Positions 14,174 through 19,982 of a stretch of DNA of 64,000 nt are shown piece after piece (within the stretch, counting starts at the first letter, position 1; the number at the start of each line of letters is the position of its first letter). The stretch comes from Frankia alni ACN14a (GTDB lineage: Bacteria; Actinomycetota; Actinomycetes; Frankiales; Frankiaceae). Under the pieces are notes generated by a model. The model was not told the DNA's origin, searched no databases, and saw only the letters and a program-made list of their open reading frames with translations. The DNA lies in assembly GCF_000058485.1 (NCBI RefSeq), contig NC_008278.1, positions 550,962 through 614,961 of the forward strand, read 5' to 3'. The position numbers and the translations under genes were made by a program.

Positions 14174-15058
14174 TCAGTCGGTGCGTTCCTGAGGGGAGGA
14201 GTGCTCCCAGTCGGCCAGGATGGTGCGGATGCCCGTGACCAGCAGCAGCGGCCGGTCGAGCATCACGTGATGACCGGCGAGCGGAATCTCGATCACCGGC
14301 GCCACCCGGCCGAGCAGGTTGTACATCTGCACCCCGATGTCCGGCGTCAGCAGGCCGTACTCGGCCCGGAACAGCGCGACCCGACAGTGCACCTTGCGCA
14401 GCACCTCCGGGGAGGGCGTGCGGTTGCCGAACACCTTCGGGTCGAACTTCCACGTCCAGCCGCCCTGCACCGAGCCGATCGACCCGCGGGCAATGTGGTC
14501 GATGATGAACGGCAGCGAGCTCGGCTGGTCCGGAACCGTGCGGAACCGGGCGAGGGCGTCGGTCGCGGTCGGGTAGACCCGCAGCGGCCCGAAGGCGGTC
14601 CGGTCGCGGGCGGCCCGCTCCTCCGGGGTGAACTCCTGGACGGGGGAGTCGACGACGACGATGCCGGCGACCCGGTCCGGGTACTCGGCGGCCGTCGTGA
14701 TCGTGACCCAGCCGCCCATGCTGTGACCGATGATGATCGGCGGCGAGGTGATCCCGGCATGGTCGATGACGGCGATGACCTCCGCCGCCCATGTGCTCAG
14801 CGTGTAGTCCTCGCGCCGGTCGCTGTCGCCGTGCCCGGACAGGTCCAGGGCGACGACCCGGTACTCGCTGGGGATGAGGGGGGCGATGTGGTCCCACCAC
14901 CCCGCGTGGGCGGCGCCGCCGTGAACCAGGACGATCGCCGGCCGCCCGGCCGTACCCCAGCAGCGGTAGCTGATGGTGGCGCCGGCGACCTCGGTCTCGT
15001 GCCGCTGCGGTCGGCTGTCAAGGGCGGCCTCGAACCAGGCCGGTGCTTCGTCTTCCAT
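14174..15058 (-). CDS. alpha/beta hydrolase fold protein
   Basis: HGGAAHAGWWDH and the nucleophile elbow GHSMGG. The start was reassigned to the internal MEDEAPAWF ATG at 15056-15058. Confidence 0.7.
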   Translation of the reverse strand: MEDEAPAWFEAALDSRPQRHETEVAGATISYRCWGTAGRPAIVLVHGGAAHAGWWDHIAPLIPSEYRVVALDLSGHGDSDRREDYTLSTWAAEVIAVIDHAGITSPPIIIGHSMGGWVTITTAAEYPDRVAGIVVVDSPVQEFTPEERAARDRTAFGPLRVYPTATDALARFRTVPDQPSSLPFIIDHIARGSIGSVQGGWTWKFDPKVFGNRTPSPEVLRKVHCRVALFRAEYGLLTPDIGVQMYNLLGRVAPVIEIPLAGHHVMLDRPLLLVTGIRTILADWEHSSPQERTD

Positions 15059-15326
15059 CCCAGGTCTCTGCCGTTCGGGTCGTGGGGCGGGTGGTTCCGG
15101 TCGCCGGCCGGGCGGCCTGCGACGTGTCCCACCCTGATACAACACCGCTTGCCCGGAGTTCCGGGCCTTCCGGGGCAGGTTGTCGGATTGACGATGTGTC
15201 ACCTGGCCCGCTGCGACGGGGCCGTGACGCGCGTGTGACCTCCCGGGGCGCGGTGTGGACCGGTGGTGATCGGCCGGCGGCTGGTCAGGCGTGGCCGAGC
15301 GCCGGTCAGGCGTGGCCGAGCGCCGG

Positions 15327-16925
15327 TCAGGCGTGGCCGAGGCCGGTGATGTGGCCGGCCAGCACGGGGGTGCGCACACCGTCGGGCCAGCGCAGCGTCA
15401 CGCCCGCGCCGGGTAGCAGGATGCCGCACCGGGCCGAGGCTGCGGGTCCGGTCGGGGGCACCGGCCGGTCCGCACGGTCGGCTGTGATCATTCCGTAGCC
15501 GGGGAAGCAGGTCAGCCAGTCACCCATGGTCACCCCCGCTGGGCGTGGCACCGCCGCCACGTCCACCTCGGCGGCGCAGCCGCTGGCCTCGGCGAGCATC
15601 CCGAGGGTGCCGGCGATGCCGGCCATGCTGACATCCTTGGCCGCGCTGGGCCGGTGGCGGCCGGGCATCCGCACCATCGCCTGGAGTTCGGCGGTGCGCC
15701 GGCTGGCGGCCGAATCCCACTGCCGACCGGTGTATCCAGGGCGCCAGCCGCCGCCGAGGTCGACCGTGAGGGAGACGGCGTGGCCTGGCAGCCCGCCGCC
15801 GGCCGGCACCGGGTGCGCCGCGCGCCCGAGTGCCGTGACGGCCAGCGCCGCCCGGACGCCGAACTGGCTGTGCCCGCCGAGGATCTGCACGCCGTAGGCG
15901 TCCGCCGCCGCGCGCAGTCCCCCCAGCACCCGGGCGACGTGGGACGCGGTCGTCCCCGCCACCGCGTCGAGCAGGCCGATCGGGGTGGCACCCATGGCGG
16001 CGAGATCGTTGATGCTCACCAGCGCGCCGCACCAGCCGGCCCAGTGCGGGTCCCGCTCCACCATCGTCGGCATGATCGCGTCGCAGGCCGCGACGATGTC
16101 GCTGCCCGGCAGCGGGGCGCCGTCGTCGCCGACGAAGCCGGGCCCGCCCGGACGCAGCCCGGCGAGCACCGCTCCCAGCGGGGCCTTGCAGGACGCGACC
16201 AGCGCCGCGATCCGGTCGATGGGCCATCGCATCAGCACCCCCGGCCCGCGGGCGAGCGCCGCTGGGCCCGCCGTGGACCAGCCCAGCCGGCCGAAGAAGC
16301 GCTCCAGCTCCGGGCGCACCACCGCCTCGAGTCGGAGCACCCCGCAGTCCTCCGCCCGGGCGGCCGCGGCGCGCACGAGCGCGGCGGCGACGCCGGGGAA
16401 CTCGTGGCGTGCCCGGGCGGACACGGCGAGCCGGTCGCAGTACCAGGCGCCCAGGTCCGGCCCCGGCCACAGCGGTCCGAGCCGGATCCCACCGAGGACG
16501 GCGCCGTCGCCCCCCGCACCGACGGCCCGCGCGATCAGGACGACCGTCCGTGGATCGCCTTCCCGTGATTCGTCTGTCCACGGATCATCAGCTGGCGGTT
16601 CGTCGGCCCGCGAATCGTCGGTCCACGGACCGTCGGCCCGCGAATCGTCGGTTCGGGCATCGTCGCCGCCGGAGCCCTCGTAGCCGGTGTGGATGGCCGG
16701 GCTCGCGAGCTCGCGGTGGGCCGCAAGCGTCGCGGCGTCGCCGGCCTGCTCGATGCGGTACGGGGGCAGCCGCTCCAGGGTCCGTCGGTCGCCCCAGATC
16801 GCGAGGGTGTCGACCGGCTCGGCCGTCACGGGCGGCGCGGCACCCGCGGACAACAGTGCGTCGAGGACCGGCCGGGCCACCCGTGCGCGCCGGGGTGGGG
16901 CGGCCGGCGCGCCGTCGACGGTCAC
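15327..16925 (-). CDS. fusion of a GNAT N-acetyltransferase (MSMEG_0567/sll0786-like) and an AIR synthase-related protein (sll0787-like), i.e. Nit1C-cluster components
   Basis: The N-terminal half has the GNAT core (RTVVLIARAVG...GAWYCDRLAV...RLEAVVRPELERFFGRLGW). The C-terminal half has a PurM-like fold (INDLAAMGATP, ILGGHSQ). A low-complexity repeat insert sits near the N-terminus. GTG start. The family assignment is from memory. Confidence 0.55.
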   Translation of the reverse strand: MTVDGAPAAPPRRARVARPVLDALLSAGAAPPVTAEPVDTLAIWGDRRTLERLPPYRIEQAGDAATLAAHRELASPAIHTGYEGSGGDDARTDDSRADGPWTDDSRADEPPADDPWTDESREGDPRTVVLIARAVGAGGDGAVLGGIRLGPLWPGPDLGAWYCDRLAVSARARHEFPGVAAALVRAAAARAEDCGVLRLEAVVRPELERFFGRLGWSTAGPAALARGPGVLMRWPIDRIAALVASCKAPLGAVLAGLRPGGPGFVGDDGAPLPGSDIVAACDAIMPTMVERDPHWAGWCGALVSINDLAAMGATPIGLLDAVAGTTASHVARVLGGLRAAADAYGVQILGGHSQFGVRAALAVTALGRAAHPVPAGGGLPGHAVSLTVDLGGGWRPGYTGRQWDSAASRRTAELQAMVRMPGRHRPSAAKDVSMAGIAGTLGMLAEASGCAAEVDVAAVPRPAGVTMGDWLTCFPGYGMITADRADRPVPPTGPAASARCGILLPGAGVTLRWPDGVRTPVLAGHITGLGHA

Positions 16926-17081
16926 GTCGGGTTGTTCGTCGGCATCGAGTGCTTCCAGTCGGTCGGGGCGTGGCCTGGCCGGTGGGGGCGTGGCCTGGTC
17001 GGTCCGCGCGTGGCCCGGTTGGTCAGGGCGTGGCCTGGTTGGTCAGCGCGTGGCCCGATTGGTCGGGGCGTGGCCGGTTGG

Positions 17082-17591
17082 TCAGAACATGAAGGTGGAA
17101 TTGATGATCGCGCCACGCCGGGTGTACTCGATGACGCAGTCCTGGATGTCCAGCGGATGCGCGGGTATCACCCCGTCGATGACGTCCTCCTCGCGCAGGC
17201 CGTGCAGCGACAGTCCGAACCGGCAGACGTAGACCTTCCCGCCCTCCTTGATGAACGTCTCGATCTGGTGATTGATGTTGTGCTCGCCCGGAAACGCGGA
17301 ATCGCCGGTGTGCGGAAATCCTCGGGTCGCCATCGTGTTCATCGCGCCGGGCCCGTAGAAATAGAGGACGGACTCGAAGCCCTTGCGTAGGGCGCGGGTG
17401 GCCTGCAATATCGCGACGAAGCTGACCGACGACTCGTGTGCGATGCCGTGGACGAGGGTCAGGTAGCACTCGCCGTCACGGGCCTGGTAGTCCGGGAAGA
17501 TCTTGGTCGATCCGTACAGGTTGCTACCCGGGGGGAGTGCCGGATGGGGAACCTCGTTGAGGCTCTGCCGGTCGTTCTCCGTCAGCTCCAT
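17082..17591 (-). CDS. sll0783/MSMEG_0572-family (DsrE-like fold) nitrogen-starvation-response-like protein
   Basis: 169 aa (MELTENDRQSLNEV...YLTLVHGIAHESS...VYVCRFGLSLHG). GAGGAGCG RBS. Local GC is about 60 % against about 72 % in the flanks. Confidence 0.45.
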   Translation of the reverse strand: MELTENDRQSLNEVPHPALPPGSNLYGSTKIFPDYQARDGECYLTLVHGIAHESSVSFVAILQATRALRKGFESVLYFYGPGAMNTMATRGFPHTGDSAFPGEHNINHQIETFIKEGGKVYVCRFGLSLHGLREEDVIDGVIPAHPLDIQDCVIEYTRRGAIINSTFMF

Positions 17592-18052
17592 GAACGCTCC
17601 TCGATCGGGCCCGGGACGTGACTGCACGGATCGCCTGTCGCCGGTCTCACCGGGGCGCCGCCGGTCGTCGTCGACGACAAAGCGCGGACGGTACCGGCGG
17701 TCGGCACGTGCCGCGGAGATCCCCTTGTTGCACGCGTTGCAGTCAAGCACCTCGCCGATTCCCGTGTGCGACGAACACGACGATCCGCGACGAAGCCCGG
17801 GCTTTCTGGTCCCGGTATGGCCGCGGCGGACCAGACGGCATTGTCCGCAGCCCGATCGAGGTCTTTCTTTGCAACGATTGACCGGCCTGGGGTGATTTGC
17901 GCACTGTCGCCGGCACCCCCAGAACCAGCGGAGGCTTTGCCGAATCACGGATGGTTTGTGCCTTCGGGTCGACCAGGGCCGCCGGCCGGCGCCGTGCGCA
18001 CCGGACCGGGAATCGCCCGGCGGCGCAACGGTGGACCGGGGATGCTGGGGGG

Positions 18053-18946
18053 GTGCGATATGCCGTGCTTGCCGACCTCCACGGCCGACCGGGGGCGCTG
18101 CGGCGGATCCTCGCCGCCGCGGCGGCGGCGGGCGCCGACGAGATCGTCTGCCTCGGCGACTACCTGGAGGCGAAGGTCCCACGTCGCCTGCACGATCCCT
18201 CGCGGTTCTGGCCGCTGGAGCGCGTCGTCGACCCCGACCCGGCGCTGTGGGCGCGTCTCGCCGGCATCCGCCGGGTGCTGGGGAACCAGGAGCTGCGCAT
18301 CCGCGAGCTGCTGCGGCCCGAGCAGGTACCCGCCGACCTCGCCGTCCTGCTGGACGCGCCCGAGCGGGATCGCCTGCACGGTCTCGTGGGCCTGCACGGC
18401 CACCAGATCCGTTGGTCGACCGGTCGCGCCGAGCCCGTCGGCGGCCCGGGTGAGCCGGGTGAGCCGGGTGAGCCGGTCGGGACGGCGGCCGACGGCTCCG
18501 CGGACGGGCGGGCTCTGCTCGTGCCGGTCGCCGCCGACGTCCCCCGGGTGCCGGTAGTGGTGGTGGGGCACACCCACCAGGAGGCCATGTTCGAGATCGT
18601 CTGGTCCGACACCGCCCTTGGCGGCGATGCGGCGGACGGCCCGGCGGTGGGGCTGGTGCGGCCTGCGGGGATGCCGGGGCCTGCGGGGATGCCGGACCCT
18701 GCGGGGGTCGTGCGGACGCTGCCTCCCGTCGAGCCCGGCCGGCCGGTCGCGGTGCGCCTCGACGCGGGTCCGTCCGGTGGGGGTCCGTCCGGTGGGGGTC
18801 CGTTCGACACGGGTCGCACCGACACCGGTCGGTTCGGTGCTGCCACGCTGGTGGTCAACGTCGGGCCCGCCCGGGGCAAGCCGTCGCACTGGTTGTTGTA
18901 CGACACGGACCGTGGCGAGATCAGCTTCCAGCGAGCGGTCCGATAG
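18053..18946 (+). CDS. metallophosphoesterase (calcineurin-like)
   Basis: VRYAVLADLHGR, GDYLE, GNQE and VVVVGHTHQ motifs. GTG start after a GGGGG stretch. It has a PGEPGEPGEP insert. Confidence 0.65.
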   Translation: MRYAVLADLHGRPGALRRILAAAAAAGADEIVCLGDYLEAKVPRRLHDPSRFWPLERVVDPDPALWARLAGIRRVLGNQELRIRELLRPEQVPADLAVLLDAPERDRLHGLVGLHGHQIRWSTGRAEPVGGPGEPGEPGEPVGTAADGSADGRALLVPVAADVPRVPVVVVGHTHQEAMFEIVWSDTALGGDAADGPAVGLVRPAGMPGPAGMPDPAGVVRTLPPVEPGRPVAVRLDAGPSGGGPSGGGPFDTGRTDTGRFGAATLVVNVGPARGKPSHWLLYDTDRGEISFQRAVR

Positions 18947-19982
18947 CTAACCGTCCATTGTCAAGCACGTAAGGGCGTCATGTGGCAAGGGTCGGATGTA
19001 AGGGACTTTGGTCCTGTCGCGTCCGACAGATGGGGGTCGTACACTTTTACCAGTCCCGGTGAAGTTCTGCACCTGCGTTCCCCCCGTACGCCAGGTGAGG
19101 TGGCTTCACCGGGACTTCTTGCGTCCAAGCGTGTGTGCGGAGCGTTCCAGGGTCTTCCCGCGTCGCGCCGTGCCGCCGCTCACCCCCGCGGGGTGAATCC
19201 GGGCCGCTGCGCCTGTGCGCCCGCGCCCGCGCCCACATCCGCGACCACCGCCGGCGCGATCTCCCGGTGGTTGGCCAGCATGCTGCTCACCCCGCCGATC
19301 AGCCTCTGCCGGCGGGTGTCCCCGACCGGTCGATCCCCGCCTCGGGGTGTGGCACCTCGCCGCGCGGGTCTGGCCGGAGGGCTGTCGGCGGGCCGGCCTC
19401 GCCGACGTGCGGCTGGTGACGAGAGGGTGACTGAGTGCCACAGCGGGTATCGGAGGCGCGACGATGCCCCGTGCGCCCGGCGGCGCCCGGACCGCCGATG
19501 GGGAGGGAGAGGGGGCACCCACGATCGATCGCCGTCCGTCCCGGATCACGTGTCCACGGTGATGCGGATGAAAGATCCGACGGTCAGCGTCGCTTTGCCG
19601 ACAGGTTCGGCTACGTTCGGATAGATGTGAGATGTTTCGTAGATAACCAGTGTGGGCCGTAGCTGCGCCGTCGACCGGGGTCGATAGCCTGTTTTGGGCA
19701 TGTACTGACAAAGCTGGGCGTTACATCCGGACGAGTTGGAGGGGGCGCGGTCACGTCGGCGGGAGGCCGGCGTAATCCGGGGCCGTGGGGTCGTGAGGGT
19801 CACGGCCGCCAGGGAAGTTCCGCATCGCGGCGATGCCGTCCTGCGGATGCCCGCGGACCCGACATTGCGGCTGGGCCGCGGTGCCGGGCGACCGGGGTCC
19901 GCGCATCGGCGCGCCACCGCGATACGGGGCATCCGGAGCAGTGCCCGCTCACACGGATAACTCGGAAGGCAGGGGTGAACAG

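Follow-up and report, generated by a model that had tools for sequence, protein, structure and literature searches.

The locus described here raises the question of why two genes of a conserved bacterial cluster, 0572A and 0567A (Table 1), stand side by side without the rest of it. The Nit1C cluster as defined in 2005 comprises ORF1, a subfamily-1 nitrilase, a radical SAM protein, a GNAT protein, an AIR-synthase-like (AIRS) protein, an ORF6 of ~100 aa and a flavin oxidoreductase, with ORF1 its most conserved member at >60% identity (Podar et al. 2005, PMC1199592). Related systems are nitBCDEFGH of cyanotrophic Pseudomonas, where NitB is >90% identical among Pseudomonas (PMC11049912), the Synechocystis PCC 6803 protein Sll0783, which is abundant and induced by nitrogen starvation and whose knock-out lowers NADPH/NADP under that condition (PMC3901256), and the gpr cluster of Mycobacterium smegmatis, MSMEG_0565-0572, which confers GlnR-dependent peroxide resistance (PMC6039565), raises NADPH/NADP and is induced >250-fold by GlnR (PMC6039565, PMC3662644). 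When the nine proteins that make up a canonical actinobacterial cluster (that of Lentzea, L025) were searched by tblastn against the window, the whole 64-kb stretch of DNA analysed here, 0572A and 0567A were the sole matches; neither the full Nit1C set of seven genes, represented only by ORF1 and GNAT/AIRS homologues, nor the full gpr-type set, which includes TIGR04043, TIGR04046 and TIGR04047, is present at the locus. Both ORFs are intact, co-oriented and separated by 156 bp, show host-like GC3, and are followed, as an initial annotation had described, by an alpha/beta hydrolase gene in the same orientation. Two NCBI assemblies carry the pair in identical arrangement, as do independently built Logan assemblies, and an assembly artefact was rejected on this ground. 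Taking the synteny, gene remnants, selection statistics and second cluster that we observed together, we consider it likely that the pair is the remnant of a redundant paralogous locus, locus A, in ongoing decay, with a complete cluster B elsewhere in the genome.

Table 1. Features of the two-gene locus and its flanks, in window positions
Feature	Positions	Strand	Description
Alpha/beta hydrolase	14174..15058	-	Pfam Abhydrolase_1 + Abhydrolase_6; flanking synteny anchor
Repeat at 0567A 3' end	15283..15347	.	21-bp unit, 3.1 copies
0567A	15327..16925	-	532 aa, MSMEG_0567-type GNAT + AIR-synthase-like fusion
0567A AIR-synthase-like (PurM-superfamily) half	15327..16211	-	residues 239-532 + stop codon
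0567A GNAT half	16212..16925	-	residues 1-238
Tandem repeat in GNAT half	16562..16665	-	15/45 bp, Tandem Repeats Finder
0572A/0567A spacer repeat	16958..17085	.	20-bp unit, 6.3 copies
0572A	17082..17591	-	169 aa, MSMEG_0572/Sll0783 family (TIGR04044)
Conserved block upstream of 0572A	17730..17786	-	kept in seven cluster-1 Frankia
Metallophosphoesterase	18053..18946	+	Pfam Metallophos; annotated 297 aa; divergent; opposite-side synteny anchor

Profile searches upheld both family assignments of the initial annotation. 0572A, which had been correctly placed as an sll0783/MSMEG_0572-like gene, matched TIGR04044 over the full profile (263.6 bits against a cut-off of 109.85, E 5e-79, positions 1-159 of 159). 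The C-terminal half of 0567A matched TIGR04050, the MSMEG_0567 C-terminal domain, equally completely (504.3 bits against a cut-off of 312.2, E 1e-151, positions 1-296 of 296), with further Pfam matches to AIRS, AIRS_C and, weakly, Acetyltransf_1. The fusion is nothing special, since GNAT-AIRS is the normal actinobacterial form. The nearest homologues of 0567A are one 99%-identical AvcI1 protein and others of at most 64% identity, which marks the fusion as rare in cluster-1 Frankia, while homologues of 0572A outside the closest Frankia are 73-89% identical to it.

The pair had also been called orphaned, lacking nitrilase, radical SAM and flavin partners. This is true locally, throughout the 64-kb window, and wrong for the genome, where contig JALJSB010000035.1 of the same assembly (GCA_024519345.1, an AvcI1-like Frankia) carries the missing members in a complete, tightly packed paralogous cluster B. 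Its gene junctions overlap and its products score 251 bits to TIGR04044, 525 to TIGR04043, 510 to TIGR04050 plus 85.6 to TIGR04045, 653 to TIGR04046 and 480 to TIGR04047; a CN_hydrolase gene is also present, and the gpr-type set, including TIGR04043, TIGR04046 and TIGR04047, is complete. 0572B adjoins radical SAM, GNAT/AIRS, CN-hydrolase and oxidoreductase genes; 0572A adjoins the fusion gene only. The alpha/beta hydrolase gene, which is missing beside cluster B and serves as a synteny flank in Parafrankia, was rejected as a cluster member; its dN/dS is 0.06-0.09. The A and B copies are 75% and 62% identical, the gene tree places the A copies in one Frankiaceae clade with B grouping elsewhere, and their sequences mark A and B as old paralogues. 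All of the named matches to the B-type radical SAM protein came from cluster-1 strains. Compensation for locus A by cluster B is suggested by a single circumstance, namely that the two co-occur.

At the same site Parafrankia and Pseudofrankia carry seven genes, encoding an amidohydrolase (Amidohydro_2), 0572, radical SAM, GNAT/AIRS, CN-hydrolase, FAD oxidoreductase and glycosyltransferase, bounded as in the window by metallophosphoesterase and alpha/beta hydrolase genes. The flanks of the window are collinear with the seven-gene Parafrankia locus L007 and with the single-gene loci L001-L005 and L018: the metallophosphoesterase matches its Parafrankia neighbour at a tblastn E of 5e-75, and the Parafrankia alpha/beta hydrolase, which lies beyond the glycosyltransferase, is orthologous to that of the window. 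Other cluster genes adjoin 0572 in 73 of 80 related loci, the exceptions being six loci of cluster-1 Frankia and that of the window. The fusion gene has been deleted in every other cluster-1 species examined, with 0572A kept under strong selection; in F. torreyi and Frankia sp. AiPs1 0567 is reduced to a 3' stump, such stumps directly following 0572 in L001 (53 codons aligned) and L002, and in F. gtarii, F. tisae and Ca. F. alpina nothing of the gene is left. Searches of three spacers for remnants of the lost genes (tblastn with Parafrankia proteins and an E limit of 1, blastn with word size 7) returned nothing beyond chance, and no radical SAM remnant was detected in the spacer. Because of the synteny with the seven-gene Parafrankia locus and the 3' stumps in F. 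torreyi and AiPs1, the earlier suggestion that the cluster had been reduced stands, and the window locus is a vertically inherited cluster minus five genes.

Locus A would thus be the copy of the actinobacterial Nit1C-like or gpr-type cluster (MSMEG_0565-0572 type) that Frankiaceae have inherited vertically, and from it the Alnus-type (cluster-1) Frankia lineage would have lost ~5.8 kb in three separate deletions that removed the amidohydrolase gene, the radical SAM gene and the CN-hydrolase/oxidoreductase/glycosyltransferase block. These losses would likely have been tolerated as the second, complete cluster B supplies the pathway. The AvcI1 lineage, with the window, would occupy an intermediate stage in which the fusion gene is still present, and later stages would be seen in the stump of F. 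torreyi and AiPs1 and in the complete absence of the gene from F. gtarii, F. tisae and Ca. F. alpina.

Vertical inheritance is at odds with the horizontal acquisition that had been proposed for the small gene on account of its AT-richness. The composition itself is much as described (about 60% GC), with 62.5% GC in 0572A compared with 71-77% in the neighbours and a window mean of ~73%, and this is what speaks for acquisition of the small gene or of the pair. By codon position, however, GC1 is 0.59, GC2 0.41 and GC3 0.87; the third-position value matches the neighbours, and those of the first two positions do not differ between orthologues. The 0572 orthologue falls below the GC of its locus in 80 of 80 loci, by a mean of 6.6 points. 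Since the drop sits in codon positions 1 and 2 across 80 loci, the argument for transfer from low GC fails, and the low GC of 0572A is not a sign of transfer. The flanks, in addition, are syntenic in Frankia, Parafrankia and Pseudofrankia, and the 0572 gene tree reproduces the species groups of Frankiaceae. As far as the tools used here allow, horizontal acquisition is already refuted, and we assign it a vanishingly small probability.

The GNAT half of 0567A is degenerate. Against TIGR04045 it scores 31.5 bits, under the cut-off of 68.45 and compared with 85.6 bits for the same-genome paralogue 0567B, and it retains 53 of 72 conserved columns compared with 68-72 in the comparison sequences, the 19 changes including R74, F78, D119, D122, G163, G180, F199 and H229, all of which are invariant in the others. 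In the protein alignment the motif AVFVxEQGLF is replaced and GVGGAL has become GVAAAL, while the tandem repeat in this half encodes a low-complexity insertion of ~24 aa (...DDSRADGPWTDDSRADEPPADDPWTDESREG...) that is missing from homologues. The amino-acid distance of the GNAT half to outgroups exceeds that of the full-cluster Frankiaceae homologues by 0.00-0.15, and by at least 0.07 in all comparisons but one; three-point dN/dS estimates differ modestly, at ~0.49 on the window branch vs ~0.41 on the Parafrankia branch. This half has evolved at an accelerated rate and has probably lost its activity. Constraint persists in the AIRS half, which keeps 149 of 159 columns of at least 90% conservation, like other Frankiaceae homologues, with a dN/dS of 0.18-0.37 against a baseline of 0.23-0.30 and neither rate acceleration nor extra distance towards outgroups.

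This bears on whether the fusion gene is a dead pseudogene whose frame has stayed intact by chance, leaving 0572A as the only gene that matters. The sub-threshold GNAT half with its 19 altered positions and repeat insertion would fit such a gene, as would its loss in sister lineages and the finding that, among the 20 substitutions separating two sister assemblies, 11 lie inside 0567A, five of these 11 being non-synonymous. That cluster of substitutions, however, also spans the neighbouring metallophosphoesterase gene, where they are synonymous, and looks like a recombination tract and not like decay; moreover, the 1.6-kb frame persists with no stop or frameshift, the AIRS half shows the conservation just described (dN/dS ~0.2, no added outgroup distance), and its TIGR04050 score of 504 bits is about as high as the 510 of the intact paralogue 0567B. 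We regard a dead fusion gene as unlikely. If the pair is instead a remnant in ongoing decay, 0567A would be in late decay and its PurM-like, ATP-grasping half would amount at most to a redundant isozyme of 0567B, although 0567A may have kept its role or gained a new one because its 532-codon ORF is intact in two strains and its AIRS half is unrelaxed. The idea that the locus is a variant repurposing the GNAT/AIRS pair is improbable in view of the degeneration of the GNAT half and the deletion of the gene in every sister species examined.

The same observations weigh on a reading of the pair as a functional minimal two-gene module, in which the DsrE-like and fusion proteins cooperate without radical SAM, nitrilase or flavoprotein; in one conceivable scheme the ATP-dependent PurM-like domain would act on an intermediate that 0572A carries on its cysteine. 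A terminator scan found one terminator-like site on the strand opposite the pair and none on the pair's own strand, which together with the intact, co-oriented and closely spaced ORFs, the baseline-strength purifying selection on the AIRS half and the identical arrangement in two assemblies and Logan contigs would suit such a module. Yet the fusion has been deleted while a selected 0572A was kept in every other cluster-1 species examined, so the two genes do not form an obligate unit; the GNAT half has degenerated, the genome has no need of an independent pathway given its full cluster B, and in most related loci 0572 stands beside other cluster genes. A self-sufficient module of this kind seems to us decidedly improbable, and we retain the interpretation of the pair as the decaying remnant of locus A.

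Of that remnant 0572A is the intact, selected survivor. Its dN/dS against Frankia species whose copy stands alone is 0.01-0.09, and the gene is under strong purifying selection even as a lone gene. A sequence search of the PDB with 0572A returned only a spurious match to CNOT1 (E 0.014), so that a fold search was needed. The AF2 model (pLDDT 79, pTM 0.79) is of a predicted DsrE/YchN-like fold: its best 12 Foldseek matches in the PDB all come from the DsrE/DsrF/YchN family, counting a designed cage that has one of these proteins as its building block, at E 3e-6, target-normalised TM 0.57-0.80 and 9-16% sequence identity, and Pfam DsrE scores 19.6 bits, under its gathering score of 22.7. Cys123, invariant across 35 homologues, appears to sit at a strand-to-helix junction, the position of the DsrE-type active-site cysteine, a correspondence of place and not of residue-by-residue alignment. 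0572A would then be a functional DsrE-like protein, its cysteine invariant, and by analogy with the sll0783 and gpr mutants, which show NADPH/NADP phenotypes, its role is probably that of a thiol/persulfide or redox relay in the nitrogen-starvation response. A literature search for DsrE in Frankia listed what appear to be papers on DsRed.

Nearly all of the spacer between 0572A and 0567A is taken up by a 20-bp tandem repeat (core GGCCACGCCCCGACC), which occupies the site of the radical SAM gene in the ancestral arrangement. The array at the 3' end of 0567A duplicates the final codons and stop of that gene (GGCGCTCGGCCACGCCTGACC), and its core is akin to that of the spacer array; the corresponding stretch of Parafrankia locus L007 has no such tandem repeat. 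Deletion breakpoints fall at window positions ~15299-15312 and ~17038-17080, so that both lie in or beside the two arrays in L003-L005 and approximately so in L002; in L001 only the breakpoint at the upstream array falls in or beside a repeat, and the left breakpoint of F. torreyi is within coding sequence, outside the repeats. These positions, the one basis for the proposal, suggest that the related repeats flanking 0567A probably promoted its deletion in sister lineages. Elsewhere in the window the repeat core has one further near-match, which is chance level, and a dispersed element was rejected for this reason.

The conserved block upstream of 0572A (GGATCG..GTGTTCGTCGCACACGGGAATCGGCGAGGTGCTTGACTGCAAC), in which a TTGACT hexamer is invariant, is kept even in the distant F. 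canadensis and is missing from Parafrankia and every other locus with up to 6 mismatches allowed. The block probably serves the remnant locus as promoter or operator, and 0572A would be expressed from it, acting alone or in trans with cluster B. A scan for the sigma-70 consensus found no sigma-70-like site, and a scan upstream of 0572A for GlnR boxes (Gn2AC-n6-GnAAC / GTnAC-n6-GAAAC, consensus from PMC3662644) gave only matches with one or two mismatches, most of them without the critical adenines.

Compared with the gpr cluster, the window proteins belong to the families named for MSMEG_0572 and MSMEG_0567, and the fusion architecture of 0567A is that of the fused proteins of other actinobacterial clusters examined; the ancestral Frankiaceae locus and cluster B share with gpr the radical SAM protein TIGR04043, the glycosyltransferase TIGR04047 and CN-hydrolases, and cluster B the TIGR04046 flavoprotein. 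Unlike gpr, the window locus keeps two genes, its GNAT domain is under the family cut-off, it has no convincing GlnR box upstream, and its order, 0572 then 0567 across a repeat-filled spacer, would be a product of deletion. With Nit1C the window shares the families of ORF1 (NitB/Sll0783), GNAT (NitE) and AIRS (NitF), ORF1 being the most conserved in both. It differs in that neither the window nor cluster B has an sll0784-type nitrilase, the CN-hydrolases of cluster B being of other types, that no ORF6/MSMEG_0570 gene was detected and that GNAT and AIRS are fused; glycosyltransferase and Amidohydro_2 genes typify the actinobacterial form. Sll0783, which shares the TIGR04044 family with 0572A and is likewise DsrE-like, sits in a full sll0783-0787 cluster, whereas 0572A of cluster-1 Frankia persists without adjacent partners. 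The predicted fold of 0572A also matches the DsrE/TusD/YchN sulfur-relay proteins, from which it differs by an N-terminal extension of ~40 residues and by having no DsrF/H or TusBC partners.

For the field at large the change is small, as both genes are already named by NCBI family models and the missing partners lie in the same genome. The locus is a clean, dated case in which a symbiotic actinobacterium loses a redundant paralogous cluster one gene at a time, with intermediates kept in sister species and repeat arrays at deletion junctions. Since 0572 here is a second copy with its own upstream block that is strongly selected after the loss of all adjacent partners, we tentatively raise the possibility that the 0572/Sll0783 function is separable from the cluster enzymes, and that 0572A of the AvcI1 lineage may still have a partner in a PurM-like enzyme whose GNAT domain is dead. 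Such a separable role would concern the DsrE-like ORF1, the most conserved and least understood component of Nit1C and gpr. If this is correct, Frankia would offer a natural deletion series, from the full locus through 0572 plus fusion to 0572 alone, with which the part played by each Nit1C/gpr component could be dissected, a question standing since 2005.

Reading frames at locus A, which lies in a region of ~72-78% GC, were picked by third-position GC, and the gene products were assigned with NCBIfam and Pfam (see the table). The 169-aa protein 0572A falls in TIGR04044 (MSMEG_0572/Sll0783 family) with 263.6 bits against a cut-off of 109.85. In the 532-aa GNAT/AIR-synthase-like fusion 0567A, residues 239-529 belong to TIGR04050 (MSMEG_0567 C-terminal domain; 504.3 bits, cut-off 312.2), and the N-terminal GNAT model TIGR04045 scored 31.5 bits, below its cut-off of 68.45. 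Pfam was concordant, with AIRS and AIRS_C and a marginal Acetyltransf_1 on 0567A and a sub-threshold DsrE match on 0572A. The two-gene observation and both family guesses of the initial annotation are therefore confirmed; both proteins belong to families already described, and public annotation names them accordingly.

Features of locus A (window positions) and genes of the paralogous cluster B
Feature	Position	Strand	Assignment or remark
Alpha/beta hydrolase	14174-15058	-	Pfam
Further tandem repeat	15073-15112		21 bp, 1.9 copies; between hydrolase start and 0567A
0567A, 532 codons	15327-16925	-	TIGR04050; AIRS, AIRS_C
0572A, 169 codons	17082-17591	-	TIGR04044
Conserved block upstream of 0572A	17730-17786		57 bp, invariant TTGACT; in all cluster-1 Frankia including F. 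canadensis
Metallophosphoesterase	18053-18946	+	Pfam; divergent from the three minus-strand genes
Cluster B, Amidohydro_2			
Cluster B, 0572B, 173 aa			TIGR04044, 251 bits
Cluster B, radical SAM			TIGR04043, 525 bits
Cluster B, 0567B, 479 aa			TIGR04050, 510 bits; TIGR04045, 85.6 bits (above cut-off)
Cluster B, CN-hydrolase			
Cluster B, flavoprotein			TIGR04046, 653 bits
Cluster B, glycosyltransferase			TIGR04047, 480 bits

With 0572A as query and one genome per species, 80 loci were collected, and additional cluster genes adjoin 0572 in 73 of them. The exceptions in which 0572 stands alone form one taxonomic group (Frankia torreyi, AiPs1, F. gtarii, F. tisae, Ca. F. alpina and F. canadensis). 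A Lentzea locus is ordered MSMEG_0570, flavoprotein (TIGR04046), an unassigned 278-aa homologue of the Amidohydro_2 genes at Frankiaceae loci, 0572, radical SAM (TIGR04043), the fusion, two CN-hydrolases and glycosyltransferase (TIGR04047). Its fusion carries TIGR04045 plus TIGR04050, and the fused GNAT/AIRS arrangement as such is therefore the usual actinobacterial form. When the nine Lentzea proteins were searched against the whole 64-kb window by tblastn, only 0572 and 0567 were matched, and locus A fits the definition of neither the Nit1C nor the gpr cluster.

The exact 0567A protein is encoded on contig JALJSB010000004.1 of GCA_024519345.1 and a 99%-identical copy in GCA_024519415.1 (named Frankia sp. 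AvcI1); the next homologues are at most 64% identical. Parafrankia elaeagni has both flanking genes of the window locus and, between them, Amidohydro_2, 0572, radical SAM, GNAT/AIRS, CN-hydrolase, a 571-aa FAD oxidoreductase and a glycosyltransferase. Relative to Parafrankia, the window has lost ~5.8 kb in three separate deletions, and no recognisable remnants of the deleted genes were found at the window locus. By blastn the window and F. torreyi align collinearly (~92% identity) on either side of a gap spanning window 15456-17079, nearly the entire fusion gene, and ~15300-17074 is absent from other cluster-1 (Alnus-type) species. Junction alignment revealed the fusion-gene tail directly after 0572, stop included (the last ~45 codons in F. 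torreyi, ~25 in AiPs1), which shows that the fusion is ancestral at locus A and was deleted in sister lineages, not inserted in the window. These tails and the seven-gene Parafrankia locus between the same flanks bear out the earlier alternative that the cluster was reduced. The deletion endpoints are not the same in F. torreyi, in AiPs1 and in the gtarii group (including F. gtarii, F. tisae and Ca. F. alpina), suggesting that the fusion gene is dispensable in those lineages.

In Parafrankia locus A (L007 14301-16016) the FAD-binding oxidoreductase replaces the usual MSMEG_0569-type flavoprotein, and the Lentzea TIGR04046 protein gave no match to it. A ~500-aa ORF lies at the corresponding position in a Mycobacterium MAG cluster (L040 8360-9850); together the two suggest a sub-variant of the actinobacterial cluster.

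The 156-bp spacer between 0572A and 0567A consists of a 20-bp unit repeated in tandem 6.3 times, and a 21-bp array triplicates the 3' end of the fusion gene together with the stop codon; the cores of both arrays are nearly identical, GGCCACGCC(C)TGACC. Both breakpoints of the gtarii group fall inside the two arrays. In AiPs1 the upstream array contains one breakpoint and the second lies next to the 3' array; for F. torreyi the upstream breakpoint alone lies in an array. No such arrays were found in Parafrankia. Recombination or slippage between direct repeats would be a plausible route to loss of the fusion gene. Short tandem duplications also abound in the intergenic stretch between the hydrolase and the fusion gene.

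Querying with the Parafrankia radical-SAM protein gave MSMEG_0568-family matches that carry the names of cluster-1 strains (AvcI1 and AiPs1 among them), and look-up of the encoding contigs led to cluster B, a complete seven-gene cluster on contig JALJSB010000035.1 of GCA_024519345.1 (L086 7149-14573), in which several gene junctions overlap or are ≤25 bp. An F. alni accession exists for a protein identical in sequence to 0572B. Radical-SAM, CN-hydrolase and flavoprotein partners thus reside on another contig of the same assembly, and the pair described as orphaned is so locally, not genomically. The A and B copies, 75% (0572) and 62% (0567) identical, are old paralogues. Frankia sp. AgKG'84/4 likewise encodes 0572 twice, with a B-type paralogue adjoining radical SAM (21-kb contig) and another that shares 84% identity with 0572A (155-kb contig).

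The initial annotation had read the low GC of 0572A as a sign of horizontal acquisition. Its GC is 62.5% (GC1/GC2/GC3 = 0.59/0.41/0.87), the deficit being confined to positions under amino-acid-sequence constraint. Every orthologue shows this pattern, and 0572 is below the GC of its own locus in 80/80 loci (mean gap 6.6 points). In neighbour-joining trees the site-A 0572 and AIRS-domain copies of Frankia, Parafrankia and Pseudofrankia form a single clade. Locus A is thus native, so the low GC is no evidence of transfer and that proposal is unsupported. In the same simple trees, which carry no support values, the cluster B copies group with non-Frankia actinobacteria (0572 with Nakamurella and Subtercola, the AIRS domain with Pseudonocardia and Blastococcus). 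If anything, cluster B rather than A would be the import, and it may have arrived by horizontal transfer and so rendered locus A redundant.

The 0567A frame is intact in both strains. With residue 238 as the dividing point, the two halves were analysed separately; columns counted as conserved were those ≥90% conserved among 119 homologues. The AIRS half keeps 149/159 conserved columns (comparison sequences, 148-158 of 159-162; Frankiaceae ones, 148-152), shows pairwise dN/dS of 0.18-0.37 against Frankiaceae A copies (baseline 0.23-0.30) and is at unchanged amino-acid distance to five outgroups relative to full-cluster Frankiaceae. The GNAT half keeps 53/72 (comparison sequences, 68-72), with pairwise dN of 0.39-0.44 (baseline mostly 0.25-0.27) and outgroup distances of 0.46-0.54 versus 0.36-0.46 in full-cluster Frankiaceae; it has lost eight residues invariant in other homologues, its 'AVFVxEQGLF' segment is replaced, and a ~24-residue insertion stems from a tandem repeat. 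Three-point estimates by hand gave window-branch dN/dS of ~0.23 (AIRS) and ~0.49 (GNAT). This domain-wise pattern indicates that the GNAT half is degenerating or changing and that the PurM-like half was kept up over most of the period following the Parafrankia split. The departures from the Nit1C and gpr definitions and the GNAT score below its cut-off reflect a decaying duplicate, not a new system. The suggested repurposing of the GNAT/AIRS pair is unsupported.

Between the window and the AvcI1 sister assembly there are 20 substitutions across 21.6 kb, 18 of them within window 15415-19237 (3.8 kb): the fusion gene holds 11 and the repeat spacer 2, another 5 fall in or ahead of the metallophosphoesterase, and 0572A has none. 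This cluster has the appearance of a tract introduced by recombination from a third, unsampled strain, not of local decay. The sister assemblies also differ by an 18-bp in-frame indel at window ~18695, in the proline/glycine-rich repeat (PAGMPGPAGMPD...) of the metallophosphoesterase, a fast-evolving gene (dN/dS 0.33-0.41 among Frankia) with low-complexity inserts that its Parafrankia orthologue lacks.

Against species where 0572 stands alone, 0572A has dN/dS of 0.011-0.089 at dS 0.20-0.33, equal to or below that of the housekeeping-like flanking genes. The conserved TTGACT block upstream of it is absent upstream of the Parafrankia locus and from all other loci examined. The 12 best PDB matches of its AF2 model (pLDDT 79) are all DsrE/DsrF/YchN-like, and Cys123 is invariant in 35/35 aligned homologues. 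From purifying selection, the upstream block, the predicted fold and this cysteine we conclude that 0572A is in all probability functional.

In M. smegmatis, GlnR binds upstream of MSMEG_0572, and the cluster, induced 263-fold under nitrogen limitation, is needed to withstand peroxide and increases NADPH/NADP (PMC3662644, PMC6039565); a Synechocystis sll0783 knock-out shows no NADPH/NADP rise under nitrogen starvation (PMC3901256), and the nitBCDEFGH cluster of cyanotrophic Pseudomonas is associated with the assimilation of cyanide and nitriles (PMC11049912). On our best reading, cluster B would carry out the pathway in this Frankia, 0572A would add to the supply of the DsrE-like cysteine protein under separate regulation, and 0567A would be a redundant isozyme of which the ATP-dependent half alone is still maintained. 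We consider it rather unlikely that the DsrE-like protein functions separately from the enzymes; if it does, Frankia would offer a natural deletion series with which to dissect the cluster.
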